Part shown: positions 124 through 29,390 of the stretch, piece after piece
Position numbering within the stretch: the stretch's first letter is position 1
Layout of the letters: every line of letters starts with the position of its first letter
Source of the DNA: a virus
Lineage: Duplodnaviria; Heunggongvirae; Uroviricota; Caudoviricetes
Virus record (IMG/VR): IMGVR_UViG_2713896908_000011
Coordinates: 1-32,977 of that record
Direction: 5' to 3' (one strand)
Length of the DNA stretch: 32,977 bases
Notes under the pieces: model-generated
Database searches by the model: none
What the model was told of the DNA's origin: nothing
What the model saw: only the letters and a program-made list of their open reading frames with translations
Program-made: the position numbers and the translations under genes

Positions 124-3100
124 CGTCCACCTCCGGAGAACAGGCCACCATCACGCATCTGTGTCTGAATTTCATCACGGGCACCCTTGCGGGCCATGTC
201 ATACACCGCCTTCAGAGCAGCCGGACCTATCTGCCCGTTCGTGCCGTCGTTGTTAATCACCACATGGTTATTCTGCTCAAACATCGCCATACCTGAACCA
301 CCAATATTTGCCACAACCCCCAGCTTACCGTCAGCACCACGGCGCAGTGGCAGAATGGCTTCAGGTCCCGCTTCCCCCATCACACCCGCGCCTTTTGCAA
401 AAGCAAAAAACGTCGGTCGGTTAACCACCGTGCCGCTGTAGCGACTCAAATCAGCCGACTGATAAACGCCACCATCAGCATTGGGCGTCACACTGGCAGC
501 GGCAGCACTCCCCCAGCCAAACGCCGAACCAATCCCCTTCACCGCCTGCATCATGGCCATCTGCGCCATAATTTTTGCCAGATCGGAAAGGAGTGAGGCG
601 GTAAAAGATTTGAAGTTCAGTTTTCCGGTGGTACAGAAGGTCGCCAGTGCATTACCAGCACTGTTAAATGCCGCTGTAAGCATCTGCTCAGCAGTGCCTG
701 CCGCATTATCCGCATCTGCCGTGAAATTCTGAAACGCCCGCATGGCACCGTTTTTCCAGTTACCCTGAGCAATTTCAAGCTGTTGCCAGTAACGGCGATT
801 CTCATTCAGTTGTCGGTTCAGGCTCTCCGTCAGCGCCTGCTCGGCCTTTCTGTAGTCATCCGTGTTATATGTCCCTTTCTGCTCACTATCCCGCCTCAAC
901 TGCTCCAGCTGTTGCTGGTATTTCTGGCGAAGACTCAGTTGTACCTGATATCGCTGCCGCTGCTGATCACCCATACCCACCGTGGCGATATCCAGGTCAT
1001 GTTGCTGACGCTGAGCGCGCTCTTCTTCAGCCAGTTGACTGGTCAGCTGAATTGTTTTTTTCTTCAGATCGTTGAGTGCCGTCTGTTTCTGAAGCTCCTG
1101 CTGTTTTACATCCAGCAGCGTCAGTGCCTGAATCAGTTCATCTTTACTGGCCAGCACACTCTTTTCATCTGCCGTCAGTTTTTTCCCGTCCAGATCGCTG
1201 ATGCGCTGCTGCAGAGCCAGAAGCTGTTTATGCGCTTCTGTCATCCTGTCAGTGGCAATGCCTGCTGACTGTCTTACAGCAGCAATCTGTCCTTCCACCT
1301 GTGCCTGTTGCTGGCTGTACTGCAGCAATAACCGGGTGGCCTCATCATTACGGGTTTCGCGTGTTTTTTTCTTACCGGATGCCAGGGCTTTCTCGTAACG
1401 TTCATTTTCACGTTGTATCGCCGCATCCCTGACAGCCTGATCGGCGTACTGCATGGCATTAATACGCGCAATTTCACGCTGATGTCGTGCTGCTTCCGTT
1501 TCATTCATCCGGTTCAGTGCAGCATTTTCAGCATTACGGCGTTTCTGTTGCTCCTGATAATTCCGCTCTGCCTGCTCTTTTGCATCCTGCAAATCCTTCT
1601 GGCGTTTTTTCTCCTGAAGATCGTTAAGACGCTGCTGATCGTATTCAACCTGAGAAGATGATGCCGTCCAGGGGAGTCTTTTCGCCCGCGACACTTTCTC
1701 CTGCAAAGTGGCAATCTGCGCATCCAGCGAGTCTTCACGACCAATATTCATGGCCGCATCCCAGAACTGCTTCCACCAGTCAGACAAGGTTTGCAGCGTA
1801 CTACCCAGCGCATTGAGGTTATTATCAATATCCGCAGTACGCCGACCGGTTTCCTCTGCCAGTGCAGACATGGCTATCCGTGCCGCATCACTGGACCGCC
1901 CCTGCTCTCCAAGGACGCGTATCTGCTCAAGCTGAGTGGCAGTAAGAAAATGCAGCTCATTGTCCAGAGACTTCGCGGCATTTACAGGATCATCCTTCAG
2001 CCGCTTAAACTGATTTATGGTATCGCTGACCGACTGGCCAACCGATCGCTCCATCTGTGCGGCAGCTCTCGCCACCATACCGATATCGTTTCCACGAAAT
2101 GCACCACTCCCCACCACCTGAGCAAGCGCACCGGCTGCAGCATGTTGCGTGATACCATTCCCGGAAATAGCACGACTGAGCGTCCACAGCTGCCCGGCAG
2201 TGACTCCGGCATAATGCCCCGTCAGCGACAGCTGGCGGTTAAATTCTTCCCCCTCCTTCTGACCGTCATACCAGGCTTTACCCAGACCATAGACAGCCGC
2301 GGCAATACCGCCAATAACCGCTCCTGGCATCATGCCTTTCGGTGACATCAGTGTGTCTATCCATCCGGCACGGTTAGCCAGCGTTATCCCGGATCCCCTC
2401 AGCGCCCCTAAATTGCCGCGGGCCAGTTCACCTATCAGAACGCCTATCTCCTGGCGGGCTGCTGCACTTTTCAGACCCAGCGAATGCGTGGCTTTTCCTG
2501 CCTGCTCCATTTTGCGGATATACACTTCTGCAGCACTGCTTACCCCCAGCTGGGCTGCCTTAGCACGAAGCAACTCAGAAGATGAAAGATTCTGGCGGGT
2601 TGCCTGCTCTTTAAGCTGACGGATAAACGCCACTTTCTGTCGGGTAGCCTCTTCCTCAGCCTGTGTAAGAACACGGGTTTTCGCAGTAACCTCAGAAATC
2701 AGCGCCAGATAATCCTGCTGGCCAATCCCGCCACTGTTTCTGGCCTGTCGGATCTGCTGCTGAATACGCTGTAATTCCTGCAGCCCCGCACTGGCCTGTT
2801 TCACACTGTCAATCTGACGATAAAACGCAGCAACCGCTTTATCCTGAGCCTCCGCCAGAGCCATGGCCTGCGCCTGTTCCTCGCGCATTTTCTGGCTCAG
2901 TGCCTCCATACGCTGGCGGGTTTGCTCCACCTCGCGGGCCATGCGTTCATGAGCCTGTGCGTTCTTCTCCACCGTCTGCGCATGGACGGATGCGGCTGTT
3001 GCAGCCGAAGACGCCGCCTGCGTTGTCTGCCGGGCGGCCTGAGTCTGACGCTCCATAAAACGCTGCATACGGGCAGAAGACCGTTCTGCATCGCTGGCTG

Positions 3101-15593: not shown

Positions 15594-15790
15594 GATTGTG
15601 GTGCTTTTTGTGGTAGTTACCCACTTACGCACTTTGTATTGCTATGCCAGCAGTTAGCTTCTACTGTAAAACTATTCATGCAGCAAACCTGCACTTCACC
15701 ACAAAATGGGATTCAATACCCACAACTCTATCTGCATCTCTACTCAGGCATCAGCCTTCTTCGTTATCGTATACAGACAAGCTATGAATT

Positions 15791-16006
15791 TTAATCAGTA
15801 ATAATGACATTTGCTGCTGCAGGACCTTTAGCACCACTCTCTACAGAGAAGGTAACCTTTTGGCCTTCAAATAAGGTTCGATAATTATCATTCTGAATTG
15901 CAGAAAAATGCACAAACACATCTTTACTACCATCAACAGGAGAAATAAAGCCAAAACCTTTATCAGCGTTAAACCATTTTACTAAACCAGTCATTTTATT
16001 TGACAT
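15791..16006 (-). CDS. cspB: cold-shock protein, CspA family (CspB-like)
   Basis: [53 protein letters not shown]... carries the RNP1 (KGFGFI) and RNP2 (VFVHF) motifs and matches E. coli CspB (a Qin prophage gene) as I recall it. AAGGAA Shine-Dalgarno is present. Confidence 0.9.
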
Positions 16007-16170
16007 TCTACATTCCTTAACTTGAGCCTTTCGGCATAAATGATTTGTATAACAGAAACGACTTCGTACTTAATTGGAGAGACTCAAAGAAGGAATAAGT
16101 GAATAACACCTGAAATGAGAACTGCTTTAGTAAACTACTTCGTATATCGTCTGTTCTTCAAACCGACGCT
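16007..16170 (-). promoter_or_regulatory. long 5' leader of the csp gene with cold-box-like element
   Basis: CspA-family mRNAs have ~160-nt structured leaders. The minus-strand sequence here contains GAAGAACAGACGAUAUACGAAG, reminiscent of the cspA cold box (UGACGUACAGA). Boundaries are approximate. Confidence 0.4.
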
Positions 16171-21865: not shown

Positions 21866-22470
21866 GCGTTAGTTTCTCCACAGTCACGACACGCCACGGC
21901 GCCCGGAGCTGCACACTCGCGGGCGTCATTACTTTCTGAAATGCAAAAAATTTTGTAGACCAGTGCAGCATGCTCCTGCAGCTTCGAAATTGAGAGATAC
22001 AGCTCGTCGTTGATTGCTGTCTTCTCATGCGGTTCCACCACACCGTCTTCGATTGCCGAACGAATCTGTTTGGAATAACTGCCAATCTGTTCAATGACTT
22101 CCAGCAGGCGCTGGTTAATATCGGCGTTGTCCACATCCTCGACGTCAGGAAGAGACACAAAGACGCCATTTGCCGACTGCGCCACAGCGTCAGCAATGAA
22201 GTGAGTTCCACCAGCACGTTGCAAAATCATTGCCCATCCCAGCGGGAAAATCTGATCGCCATCGGCACGAAGGCGGTTAAATAATGCGCTCTCTGTTACA
22301 TCCAGCCAGTCAGCTGCTTCAGCGTAACCACCCGGCAACTTTGCGATAGTTTTTCTGACAGCTTTCACGTACCACTCAGGCTGTTTTTCTACTTTCCAGT
22401 GATGCTTACCCACGGTTAGCCTCATCGTTCTGTGGTTTCTGTTAATCGATTTATCCATTAGATTTTTCAT
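21862..22470 (-). CDS. CII-like/YdaT-like early regulatory protein
   Basis: First gene after cro in the rightward operon. Start is uncertain (candidate ATGs at 22470 or 22458; the track start at 22527 is a GTG overlapping cro). Family placement (Phage_CP76-type CII versus YdaT-like) is not resolved. Confidence 0.45.
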
Positions 22471-22651
22471 AAAGCTCAGGTTTAAATGGCAACCGTCCGC
22501 AAGTTCTATATGCAGCTTCTGCTGCACGTCCTTTTGGAATTAACTGGCCCGGACGGTTTCGCCACTGATAAACGGCTTCAGTTGTTATGCCGAAAAAAGC
22601 AGCAACTTTCTCAATACTGCCGAAGTAGCTTTCGATATCGTCAGTTGTCAT
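22451..22651 (-). CDS. cro: Cro-like/YdaS-like HTH repressor
   Basis: 66 aa, divergent from the cI-like gene across a 97-bp intergenic region; ...EKVAAFFGITTEAVYQWRNRPGQLIP... fits the Cro/YdaS-type HTH. Confidence 0.7.
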   Translation of the reverse strand: MTTDDIESYFGSIEKVAAFFGITTEAVYQWRNRPGQLIPKGRAAEAAYRTCGRLPFKPELYEKSNG

Positions 22652-22748
22652 ACGCCCTCCAAACTAAGTTTTATTAGATGCTAATTACAAATCTATCTTT
22701 GGTCAATAAAAACTAAGATTACTTAGCAATTCAAGAAATGGTGCTCCT
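22652..22748. promoter_or_regulatory. divergent promoter/operator region (OR-like) between cro and cI
   Basis: Contains palindrome ATTAG-atg-CTAAT (22673..22685) and inverted repeat CTAAG-atta-CTTAG (22713..22726), plus a further CTAAG at 22664. Confidence 0.55.
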
Positions 22749-23375
22749 ATGGAAACGGTTGGTCAGCGTATAAAAGCTCTGAGAAGAGTTACCAGAACGT
22801 CCCAGAAAGAATTGGGTAAATTTTGTGGAGTAAGCGACGTTGCTGTGGGGTACTGGGAGAAAGACATCAATACCCCTGGTGGGGAGGCACTTTCGAAATT
22901 AGCGAAGTTCTTCAATACGTCAATAGATTACATTCTTTATGGTGCTGAGTTTGAAGGCAAACTCGTCACAAACATGCGCAGAGTTCCTGTAATATCGTGG
23001 GTTCAGGCTGGGCAGTTTACTGAGTGCAGGGCAGCAGAAGTGTTTAGTGAAGTGGACAAGTGGGTAGATACATCATTAAAGATTGGTGATAACTCATTTG
23101 CATTAGAGGTTAAAGGTGACTCCATGACTAACCCTAATGGCCTCCCAACAATACCAGAAGGCGCAACAGTGATTGTAGATCCAGATGCAGAACCTCGTCA
23201 TGGAAAAATAGTCATCGCTCGACTTGATGGAACAAACGAAGCTACAGTAAAAAAATTAGTCATCGATGGCCCTCAAAAGTTTTTAGTGCCATTAAATCCT
23301 CGGTATCCCAACATCCCTATCAATGGTAATTGCCTTATCATTGGTGTAGTCAAAGGAGTTCAATACGAACTCTAA
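22749..23375 (+). CDS. cI: CI-like repressor (N-terminal XRE HTH, C-terminal S24 LexA-like peptidase)
   Basis: N-terminal HTH (QRIKALRRVTRTSQKELGKFCGVSDVAVGYWEKD), candidate Ala-Gly cleavage site (VQAGQF), catalytic Ser in GDSM and Lys in ATVKKL. Confidence 0.9.
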   Translation: METVGQRIKALRRVTRTSQKELGKFCGVSDVAVGYWEKDINTPGGEALSKLAKFFNTSIDYILYGAEFEGKLVTNMRRVPVISWVQAGQFTECRAAEVFSEVDKWVDTSLKIGDNSFALEVKGDSMTNPNGLPTIPEGATVIVDPDAEPRHGKIVIARLDGTNEATVKKLVIDGPQKFLVPLNPRYPNIPINGNCLIIGVVKGVQYEL

Positions 23376-23540
23376 GACCTCTCTTCTCTAACTAAGGCAC
23401 CAAGCTAAGAAAAGTTTGGTGTTTTCTCTTGCCATAACAACTAAGTTAAGTTAGATTTTATATCAAAGATAACAAACAGGCAGGACGCCCACGAAGTAGC
23501 CGCCAGGGGCATATGAAGTCCTGGATGATTCGTTAGTAAC

Positions 23541-23564
23541 AAAAAAAGCGTCGTACAGGACGCT
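23541..23564. terminator. candidate bidirectional terminator between cI and the convergent moron gene
   Basis: Hairpin AGCGTC-GTACAG-GACGCT preceded by A7 on the plus strand (U7 after the hairpin on the minus transcript) and followed by a weaker T-rich tract on the plus strand. Confidence 0.5.
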
Positions 23565-23588
23565 TCGCTCTTTAACAATCTGGATGAC

Positions 23589-24104
23589 TTATCGGTCAGA
23601 TTTAAACTGGGGTTCTGGCAAAACTGGTGGTGTTGAATCTTCAAATCGTAACCAGTGTTCCCAAATATCATGTGTTCGTAATTTCTGTAGACTAATTTGA
23701 CGCGATGCAATTGCGGAATTAGTGGTTACTCCACCAGAAGCATCGCCCTCTACTGACGTTGAGGCTTTTTCTACTAATTCTGACCAAGCTTCACTTTCTG
23801 CGTCAAAAGCTTCTGTTAAGTCCCGCAGACGCTGTGGCTCATTTTTATGGTCTTCCTTCAAACGATTCAAAGCGGCAGTTGAATACTTATTCCTGACCCA
23901 TTCGATCTGAGTTAGCTGAATCCGCAGACAATTATCTATATCAATGGTTGTGTTCTGAGGCATGTCAGAACAAGAAATATAAAAGGTCACAACTCCACCG
24001 TTCAAACTACTGCCCGGTTCGATTAAAACATTAGAGGAATTTGACGTAGTCGGCAATATTAATGCTAACGACAAAACCACATGTTTAACAGAAATCGCAC
24101 CCAT
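23589..24104 (-). CDS. hypothetical exported or membrane-anchored protein (moron between cI and the early-left operon)
   Basis: 171 aa with AGAGGG Shine-Dalgarno. N-terminus MGAISVKHVVLSLALILPTTS resembles a signal peptide or signal anchor. Convergent with cI and followed by a terminator; this is the slot that rexAB/sieB-type exclusion genes occupy in lambdoid phages. Confidence 0.6.
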   Translation of the reverse strand: MGAISVKHVVLSLALILPTTSNSSNVLIEPGSSLNGGVVTFYISCSDMPQNTTIDIDNCLRIQLTQIEWVRNKYSTAALNRLKEDHKNEPQRLRDLTEAFDAESEAWSELVEKASTSVEGDASGGVTTNSAIASRQISLQKLRTHDIWEHWLRFEDSTPPVLPEPQFKSDR

Positions 24105-24430
24105 TTAAATTGCCCTCTAAAGAACAAGGTCATCCAGATTAACCGAAACCTGGTTATTGGGGAATAACCAAATCCACCTCGCCTGATGTGGCTAAAAGCA
24201 GGCACATAACAGCTAAGTATTTTCAACCAGAGAGAATCCTTAGCGTTGTGGTGAATGCGCAGGCTGATGCGCGAAAGACATTGCAGCTATTGCGGAAAAG
24301 AGCTGTTCGGCGGGGCAATTAAATGCCTGTGAGAGTCTGAAATAACCGCAAGCCGGAGATCAGCACCGGTCACCACAACAGCCACTGCTTTGGCGGTACC
24401 AGTTTGTACACTTACTTCCGGCTGGTACCG

Positions 24431-29353: not shown

Positions 29354-29390
29354 AGCCGTTCTTGAGCATGGCTAAGAACGGTATTTTTAT
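29354..29390 (+). terminator. candidate rho-independent terminator at the end of the early-left operon
   Basis: Hairpin CCGTTCTT-(10-nt loop)-AAGAACGG (29356..29381) followed by TATTTTTAT; the reverse orientation is also followed by a T-rich tract, so it may be bidirectional. Confidence 0.5.

Follow-up and report, generated by a model that had tools for sequence, protein, structure and literature searches.

CTAAG repeats flanking a P22 c2-type repressor gene as probable operators of a lambdoid prophage immunity cassette

The window analysed here is the 32,977-nucleotide Caudoviricetes sequence of IMG/VR record IMGVR_UViG_2713896908_000011 (positions 1 to 32,977), a lambdoid prophage of the SfV/e14/KplE1-like kind. 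A repressor gene, called cI here, and a cro-like gene diverge from a short non-coding region in it, and the pentamer CTAAG recurs on both sides of cI. This raises the question of whether the repeats are operators of the repressor and, if so, to which class of lambdoid switch they belong. A first-pass annotation had suggested that they could be half-sites of OR-like and OL-like operators, with lambda as the model. From the analysis described below, the CTAAG motifs are very probably operators of a P22-like repressor flanking its own gene, in an ordinary lambdoid lysis/lysogeny switch. This reading is based on the enrichment of the motif, its phylogenetic footprint, its overlap with PR and PL, the module boundaries and the match to the layout of P22 immC. 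The features are listed in Table 1.

Table 1. Genes and predicted regulatory features of the immunity region and its surroundings (window coordinates)
Feature	Coordinates	Strand	Description
Flanking genes	19.4-22.5 kb	-	methylase, YfdN-like, O-like replication, CP76/cII-like (YmfL), then the cro-like gene
cro-like gene, 66 aa	22451-22651	-	Pfam P22_Cro, E = 4.4e-11
OR1, strong operator	22662-22679	+	AACTAAGTTTTATTAGAT; core CTAAG-N4-ATTAG, 22664-22677
PR -10 hexamer TAGCAT	22678-22683	-	promoter scan TTGACC-17-TAGCAT; TAATAT in most relatives
OR2-like weak/degenerate site	22686-22703	+	TACAAATCTATCTTTGGT; overlaps PR spacer and -35
PR -35 hexamer TTGACC	22701-22706	-	promoter scan; GGTCAA invariant in 15/15 loci
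OR3-like strong operator, nearest cI	22711-22728	+	AACTAAGATTACTTAGCA; pattern match, both strands
cI repressor gene, 208 aa	22749-23375	+	Pfam HTH_3 + Peptidase_S24
cI intrinsic terminator	23398-23431	+	stem 23398-23406/23413-23421, loop AAGAAA, then TTTTCTCTTG
OL2-like weak site	23403-23420	+	AGCTAAGAAAAGTTTGGT, within cI terminator hairpin
PL-like promoter	23429-23457	+	promoter scan TTGCCA-17-TAGATT; TTGACC in most relatives
OL1, strong operator	23439-23456	+	AACTAAGTTAAGTTAGAT; overlaps PL spacer and -10
PL leader	23465-23578	+	structured RNA ~23465-23540, hairpin 23545-23566, boxA-like GCTCTTTAACAA 23567-23578
Flanking genes		+	yfdP, yfdQ (DUF2303), HD hydrolase, further on from cI

CTAAG repeats around cI and the predicted operator unit

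The region between the divergent genes is 97 bp long (22652-22748), bounded by the cro ATG at 22651 on the - strand and the cI ATG at 22749. Two palindromes had been described in it, ATTAG-atg-CTAAT at 22673-22685 and CTAAG-atta-CTTAG at 22713-22726, and both are present. A CTAAG at 22664-22668 had been overlooked; combined with ATTAG at 22673-22677 it gives CTAAGTTTTATTAG, a sequence with the geometry of the 22713 site. The palindrome ATTAG-atg-CTAAT was rejected as an operator, since its left arm coincides with the right half of OR1, its right arm belongs to the PR -10 hexamer, and it was found in only one of the 15 related loci. Downstream of cI, where five CTAAG copies had been counted, four exact ones were found (23372, 23392, 23405 and 23441), the fifth being a one-mismatch copy only, TTAAG or GTTAG at 23446-23454.

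CTAAG is rarer than expected over the whole window (17 copies against 43.5 +/- 6.5 expected), and seven of the 17 copies lie within 22664-23445. The suspected enrichment near cI was borne out by comparison with local dinucleotide-preserving shuffles (P = 0.0014-0.017), with P = 0.0014 for the 97-bp region and P = 0.004-0.017 for a stretch of 85-91 bp following cI; the same comparison over all 809 bp gave P = 0.003. The longer pattern CTAAG-N5-TTAG occurs in the 33-kb window only at 22664-22677, 22713-22726 and 23441-23454. Counted over both strands it gave 4 matches versus 0.12 expected, a number reached by none of 100 shuffles. When the 14-mer was compared with local shuffles, the count observed at OR was reached in 0 of 5000, and P was 0.006 downstream of cI.

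The operator unit is an 18-bp site with the 14-bp core CTAAG-N4-NTTAG, not the isolated CTAAG pentamer. The three strong sites in the window have the form AACTAAG-N4-NTTAGNN, and they are the only 18-mers of the window that reach 12 of 14 consensus matches. The layout proposed by the first-pass annotation, OR-like sites on one side of cI and OL-like sites on the other, agrees with the computational evidence, but its half-site details had to be revised to this 18-bp unit and some of its copies dropped.

Conservation of the sites was followed in 15 loci, namely the window and 14 further loci encoding this repressor at 63-99% protein identity (3 Escherichia phages and 11 genomes of Enterobacter, Kosakonia, Kluyvera, Serratia, Rahnella and Providencia). 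In the alignments three 18-bp blocks are conserved while their flanks drift, and so are the hexamers of PR and PL, promoters that the consensus scan identified independently and that each overlap a site. The blocks are AACTAAG-N4-NTTAGAT at 22662-22679, AACTAAGAT-N2-NTTAGNN at 22711-22728 and AACTAAGTTAAGTTAGAT at 23439-23456, and the CTAAG copies within them (22664, 22713/22722 and 23441) are retained in 13-15 of the 15 loci. The central 4 bp of the operators vary both between sites and between loci. The sites occur together with this cI in all loci.

A position-weight matrix, which is circular for the three strong sites since they were its training sites, was used to scan the rest of the prophage, and nothing above background was found except 23403-23420. 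Of the downstream copies proposed as half-sites, the one at 23441 belongs to OL1 and the one at 23405 is probably a weak OL2, whereas the other two are probably incidental. Four of the 15 loci have the copy at 23372-23376, which overlaps the cI stop codon, and about five have that at 23392-23396; neither copy has a partner half-site at N4 spacing. More distant copies were set aside for their wrong geometry; the pair CTAAG/CTTAG at 24213/24239 has a 21-bp spacer, and neither this pair nor the copies at 29372/29420 and 32507/32514 were flagged by the matrix.

Predicted operators, promoters and boundaries of the immunity region

PR is overlapped by several pseudo-palindromic sites, with OR1 at its start and OR2-like at its -35. 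OR1 covers approximately -8 to +10 of PR and overlaps the last two bases of the -10 hexamer, the same position relative to the PR -10 as that of OR1 in P22. The OR1 core is conserved in 14 of the 15 loci, the remaining locus having CTAAT, and the position of the PR -10 is conserved across loci. OR2-like has 9 of 14 consensus matches, a level reached by 0.2% of the window 18-mers, and scores below 8 bits in the position-weight matrix, which makes it weak and marginal in the window itself. The same position shows 10 of 14 matches in 8 of the 14 relatives, and two Rahnella loci have the recognisable site TACTAATCTTTATTAGGT there; part of this conservation could be explained by the PR -35. From OR2-like the distance is 24 bp to OR1 and 25 bp to OR3; OR1 and OR3 are 49 bp apart.

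OR3 has 12-14 of 14 matches in all 15 loci. Within it TAAGAT (22714-22719) is invariant, as CTAAGAT in 14 loci and ATAAGAT in Providencia, and the central, normally free positions 8-9 are AT in all 15. Operator positions 4-9 of OR3 read TAAGAT in P22 and TAAAAT in phage 689R5. Given the invariant positions 8-9 and the corresponding hexamers of P22 and 689R5, TAAGAT within OR3 appears to be the best candidate for the PRM -10, and OR3 would overlap PRM. No consensus PRM was called by the promoter scan and TAAGAT has no recognisable -35, as would be expected for an activator-dependent promoter. A lambda-like PRM, TGGTCA-18-TAGCAA with OR2 at -42, was also considered. The P22-like TAAGAT is the more likely of the two, since the -10 of the lambda-like version is not conserved and the TAAGAT/TAAAAT position is common to P22 and 689R5, although neither promoter is proven.

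Beyond cI, sites of the same specificity lie over a second promoter, of the sigma-70 type, with OL1 conserved inside TTGCCA-17-TAGATT. OL1 follows closely on the cI terminator; it begins 4 nt beyond the -35 of this promoter, and its end falls in TAGATT. Its core is identical in 13 of the 15 loci; in Serratia aquatilis (L010) no recognisable OL1 was found despite a cI that is 84% identical. The promoter itself is conserved or improved in relatives. That it is the equivalent of PL is supported by three independent lines, namely the mosaic boundaries, the conserved leader that follows it and the likeness to the lambda PL leader.

The OL2-like site has 10 of 14 matches and the best matrix score outside the training sites, but with 10.5 bits versus 9.9 for the next background match it is marginal. 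Its CTAAG is retained in 13 of the 15 loci, at a distance from OL1 that is 34-36 bp throughout, and in Providencia the position is taken by a complete site, CTAAGTTTATTTAG. The OL2-like site coincides with the cI terminator, so that the hairpin may account for part of the conservation. The terminator was analysed with RNAalifold over 12 loci, giving 11 pairs, one compensatory change from CG to UA in 3 sequences and several G-U wobbles on the + strand, with a U-tract after the stem.

The two regulators are those of a divergent repressor/cro pair, the repressor combining an HTH domain with a self-cleaving S24 domain. Over its full length cI is 47% identical to P22-type c2. The N-terminal DNA-binding domain is homologous to that of P22 c2, with residues 3-65 matching the PDB entries 2R1J, 3JXB and 1ADR (E ~4.5e-11-5e-11), and the C-terminal domain matches lambda cI (E ~1e-27). 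The cleavage motif is QAG (Ala87-Gly88), and Ser125 and Lys168 of the catalytic dyad are invariant. The recognition helix, GVSDVAVGYWE, is unchanged even in the Providencia protein (64% identity overall), and the Providencia sites retain the CTAAG/CTTAG core alongside it. The cro-like product shows 30% identity to P22-type Cro, and its gene has a GGAGG Shine-Dalgarno sequence 5 nt 5' of the ATG.

Homology breakpoints were located at approximately 22437 and 23457-23471 using hetero-immune SfV and the loci of the same immunity. SfV matches the window only up to 22437 and again from 23471, while the match to same-immunity loci with different neighbours ends at 23457-23461. These breakpoints place OL1 and its promoter in the exchangeable immunity cassette, and they delimit an exchangeable module as is typical of lambdoid immunity regions. 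The region from about 22438 to 23470 can be assigned with high confidence to the immunity cassette of an SfV/e14/KplE1-like lambdoid prophage. The cassette was found in 517 of 5426 complete E. coli genomes, chromosomal in every case, and in prophages of at least seven further enterobacterial genera. Its nearest phage records are vB_EcoM-689R6, vB_EcoS-569R4, mEp460_4F5 and LLS, in which both regulators are annotated generically only; the annotation of the cassette does not go beyond 'LexA family protein / Cro/CI regulator'. At least 90% identity in the DNA-binding domain was seen in five phage records only, none of them a classically studied phage. Literature searches, including those for SfV operators, mEp460 and the leader sequence, gave no paper describing this operator set.

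Comparison with known switches and alternative readings

The layout was compared with that of P22-type immC, using the sequence of phage Emek. In Emek the three OR sites are ATTAAAGAACACTTAAAT (OR1), ACTAAAGGAATCTTTAGT (OR2) and ATTTAAGATGACTTAACT (OR3), and their centres are separated by 23 and 25 bp. OR1 directly adjoins the PR -10, and OR2 extends with its right end into the PR -35. At PL, 4 nt separate the -35 from OL1, AATTAAGAAGTCTTAAAT, whose end falls in the -10; OL2 directly precedes the -35, at a distance of 35 bp upstream from OL1. The window agrees with this arrangement in every register: 24 and 25 bp separate the OR sites, compared with 23 and 25 bp in P22, OL2 and OL1 are 36 bp apart (35 in P22) with OL2 immediately ahead of the PL -35 in both, OR1 lies at the PR -10 and OR2 over the PR -35, OR3 contains TAAGAT, and the PL -35 is followed after 4 nt by an OL1 that ends in the -10. 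The operators also span 18 bp, in which the core TAAG occupies positions 4-7 and 4 bp make up the centre; their symmetric form is AACTAAG-N4-CTTAGTT. The two systems differ in that OR2 and OL2 are much more degenerate in the window, where OL2 overlaps the cI terminator, and in that the cI leader is about 22 nt long, whereas in P22 OR3 abuts the c2 ATG.

The half-site is AACTAAG in the window and ATTTAAG in P22, a difference confined to positions 2-3, at which the P22 repressor discriminates. These are A-C here versus T-T or C-T in the P22 sites, so the sequence does not have P22 operator specificity. The P22 repressor binds 18-bp symmetric sites by contacts at positions 2-7 and 12-17 and leaves the four central base pairs uncontacted, and specific binding is lost when T is changed to C at operator position 3 (PMC4267663). 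The recognition helix of cI differs from that of P22 c2 by N32D, S36G and Q37Y in P22 numbering, corresponding to D30, G34 and Y35 of cI. With C at position 3 and these helix changes, the immunity should be distinct from that of P22, and the cassette should be hetero-immune to P22. The system falls into the P22 c2-type repressor/operator class of the lambdoid cI/Cro family, with a different specificity.

For the DNA-binding domain and the operator geometry the closest model is P22, not the lambda of the first-pass annotation. The window shares with lambda the divergent cI/cro arrangement, a tripartite OR, OL over PL beyond cI and the homologous S24/oligomerisation domain. The lambda PL leader, in which CAGCAGGACGC is followed by a hairpin with an AUGAA loop and then by boxA, has a related 5' sequence and a reduced form of the window layout. 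In contrast, the DNA-binding domain is of another type, the lambda operators are 17 bp long and unrelated in sequence, and rexAB is absent between cI and OL in the window. The distance between OR and OL is about 0.75 kb here and 2.4 kb in lambda.

Lambda-like bridging of OR and OL by repressor oligomers, here across some 0.73-0.78 kb, would add to the operator reading rather than replace it, and on analogy we rate it as possible but below even chances. The C-terminal domain is homologous to the lambda cI domain that makes the pairwise and octamer contacts, and strong and weak sites are paired at both OR and OL. On the other hand, OL1 is the only strong OL site, and OL1 and OL2 are 36 bp apart (~3.4 helical turns), not adjacent and in phase as in lambda. 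We know of no demonstrated looping for P22-type repressors.

SfV has the same gene order as the window, the cII-like YmfL flank and the PL leader with yfdP, yfdQ and yfdR, and its annotation places a 'putative operator region' between cro and cI; a repeat-bearing promoter comes after the cI terminator. However, its cI is only 37% identical overall, with no alignable HTH in the N-terminal domain, and the repeat in its operator region and in the TTGACA promoter after the cI terminator is GTACC instead of CTAAG. The unrelated N-terminal domain and the different motif indicate that SfV is hetero-immune. In phage 689R5 the N-terminal domain of the repressor is 54% identical, and ATCTAAGTATTTTTAGAT and AACTAAATACTTTTAGAT are found in the same registers, which suggests a broader family of CTAA...TTAG operators.

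It is quite unlikely that the sites serve Cro alone or some different regulator (the CP76/cII-like protein or a host factor, for example), while cI reads another sequence such as ATTAG-atg-CTAAT. Cro is also an HTH protein of the cassette, and sequence cannot tell which protein binds. Nevertheless, the 18-bp length, the half-sites 9 bp apart and the TAAG core match the sites of P22 c2, the closest structurally characterised relative of the cI N-terminal domain, and ATTAG-N3-CTAAT is confined to a single locus. Sites of cII-type activators are also different: in lambda these proteins bind direct repeats at the PRE -35, and not inverted repeats located over PR and PL. Operators are common to cI and Cro in lambda, P22 and 434.

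That the CTAAG copies arose by chance from AT-rich intergenic DNA, stop-codon context and a terminator, with no protein-binding role, is very improbable and already largely refuted. The two non-coding stretches do have a G+C content of only 32-35%, one copy lies over the TAA stop codon and one in the terminator hairpin, and conservation is poor for two of the four downstream copies. Against this stand the shuffling results for both the pentamer and the 14-mer, the conservation of the 14-bp sites across genera where neighbouring bases vary, and the location of the sites in the P22 operator registers.

The C-box of the restriction-modification controller C.Csp231I, CTAAG-N5-CTTAG, has inverted pentamer half-sites identical to those of the window and is bound by a small HTH dimer (PMC9638921), and the C-protein structure 4YBA is a weak PDB match to the cI N-terminal domain (E = 0.0065), but there is next to no chance that the motif is such a C-box, and membership is refuted, as the spacer is 4 bp instead of 5 bp, the relationship between the two proteins is remote, the sites accompany this cI in every locus, and their neighbours are the phage regulatory genes cI, cro and the cII-like gene, with no restriction-modification genes adjoining.

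Proposed switch, PL leader and implications

The sites with their enrichment and conservation, the consensus promoters that they overlap, the homologies of the proteins and the limits of the cassette are observed in the sequences. The preferred reading, operators of a P22-like repressor, leads to the following scheme, in which we infer from sequence the actual binding, the site preference of each protein, the position of PRM, cooperativity and any OR-OL looping. Dimers of cI, and probably of Cro likewise, would bind the 18-bp pseudo-palindromes AACTAAG-N4-CTTAGTT through contacts at positions 2-7 and 12-17, leaving the central 4 bp free as P22 c2 does. Repressor at OR1 and at the weak OR2, bound cooperatively, would cover the PR start and the PR -35 and spacer and would turn off cro and the rightward early operon, which is on the - strand. 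Binding of Cro, or of repressor in excess, to OR3 would switch off PRM and cI. Repressor at OL1, possibly together with OL2, would block PL and with it the leftward early operon, here on the + strand. The weak OL2, 36 bp upstream of OL1, would double as the cI terminator hairpin. Prophage induction would follow from RecA-stimulated self-cleavage between Ala87 and Gly88 by the Ser125/Lys168 dyad, SOS induction being predicted from these conserved residues.

The PL leader is 97% identical in hetero-immune SfV, and its boxA-like GCTCTTTAACAA is an exact match. The leader core GGCAGGACGCCCAYGAAGTAGCC, from 23471 onward, was found in at least 120 IMG/VR contigs, preceded by 89 different sequence contexts. 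A promoter (score of at least 9 of 12) that ends 20-23 nt upstream of the leader is present in at least 42 of these contexts; in the window the distance is 21 nt. Across about 90 differently immune phages, the promoter upstream of the shared leader is overlapped by inverted repeats of the phage's own, including lambda-like and P22-like ones. In the window the leader runs into a hairpin and an antisense gene of 171 aa, for which no match was found in PADLOC or Pfam. No second leader element or boxA was found on the PR side in the window.

The structure of the leader RNA was also examined in 90 distinct copies. A closing stem and hairpins were recovered with extensive compensatory variation (heavy covariation); individual pairs occurred in 3-4 Watson-Crick types, and 93-100% of cells were paired. 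An Rfam search of 23380-24400 gave no match for the leader, and that of the window returned only the cspA thermoregulator, outside the leader.

If the weak OL2 operator and the cI terminator are the same DNA, occupancy of OL2 by repressor or OR-OL looping through it might be coupled to termination of the PRM-cI transcript or to read-through into the PL leader, in a system with a reduced set of two strong OR sites and one strong OL site. We regard this coupling as an unlikely proposal. If it were true, the PL leader RNA would be a new cis-acting control element common to many lambdoid phages.

The cassette would provide a natural specificity variant of the P22 c2-DNA interface, useful for studies of direct and indirect readout, and orthogonal repressor/operator parts for synthetic circuits. 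Its DNA specificity is an uncharacterised one within a thoroughly understood type of switch, and the general picture of lambdoid switches is unchanged. With the operators defined, the immunity (superinfection) group of prophages that carry the cassette can be predicted.

A conserved RNA at the start of the PL transcript

Several features located in this analysis are listed in the table. The PL transcript begins with a conserved structured RNA. Its closing stem lies at about 23467-23471 / 23528-23532; the other elements are a 7-bp hairpin whose loop is GGCRNANGAAKN and a small hairpin, GGC-AGGAC-GCC. Downstream of many differing immunity regions, this leader recurs in at least 120 IMG/VR contigs. 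Among 90 distinct copies, each pair was represented by 3-4 Watson-Crick types, with 93-100% pairing. No match to the leader was obtained in Rfam, and no description was found in a literature search with its sequence. The PL leader of lambda resembles a reduced version of it.

Features of the window and operators of phage 689R5
Feature	Location	Strand	Details
cspA thermoregulator (Rfam)	15775-16167	-	155.9 bits, E = 6e-41
Conserved structured RNA, 5' end of PL transcript	23465-23540	+	closing stem and two hairpins
Hairpin AGCGTCGTACAGGACGCT, then boxA-like element	23545-23578		hairpin scored as - strand terminator; boxA-like on +
171-aa ORF	23589-24104	-	phrog_7681, function unknown; hydrophobic N-terminus
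689R5 operators (L018)	1410-1480 and 2195-2245		OR1 = ATCTAAGTATTTTTAGAT, OL1 = AACTAAATACTTTTAGAT

Since ribosomal RNA (rrn) operon antiterminators have the order hairpin, then boxA, the element following the structured RNA looks like a nutL-like region. Its hairpin has an A-run upstream and is directly followed by an exact match to the boxA-like GCTCTTTAACAA. No N-like gene was found directly after this element, and the PR side contains no second copy within the window.

A putative accessory insert and other sites in the window

The 171-aa ORF, for which neither a Pfam nor a PADLOC match was obtained, is an antisense insert between the PL leader and the early-left genes yfdP-yfdQ-yfdR. It is absent at the equivalent position from the phages LLS and SfV, and the relatives 689R6 and mEp460_4F5 carry other inserts there. 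The ORF looks like a moron (inserted accessory gene); in lambda, the corresponding position is occupied by rexAB.

An inverted CTAAG and CTTAG with a 21-bp spacer was also observed at 24213-24243, ahead of yfdP and within the stretch shared with SfV that starts at 24174. As an operator, this pair has the wrong geometry and was not flagged by the matrix; it is probably due to chance. Elsewhere, the Rfam cspA thermoregulator match implies that a gene for a cold-shock protein, together with its 5' UTR, lies inside the prophage or adjoins it.

Operators of related repressors

In the Serratia aquatilis locus (L010, 2900-3730), cI was 84% identical with an unchanged recognition helix, and OR1 was CTAATTTAAATTAG. 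Neither an OL1-type site nor PL was recognisable downstream of cI, and the prophage at this locus may have decayed or been rearranged. In four loci of the Enterobacter/LLS type (L003, L005, L006 and L016), an extra CTTAG abuts the OR1 CTAAG, 5 bp upstream of OR1. The two make up a palindrome, CTTAGCTAAG, which lies between OR1 and the Shine-Dalgarno sequence of cro and is absent from the window. The repressor of Escherichia phage vB_EcoS-689R5 (L018) was 54% identical in its N-terminal domain, with the helix GVTGVTIGYWEK, and its OR1 and OL1 are positioned with respect to PR and PL just as in the window. The comparison suggests that 'GYWEK' repressors have a wider family of CTAA-N6-TTAG operators.
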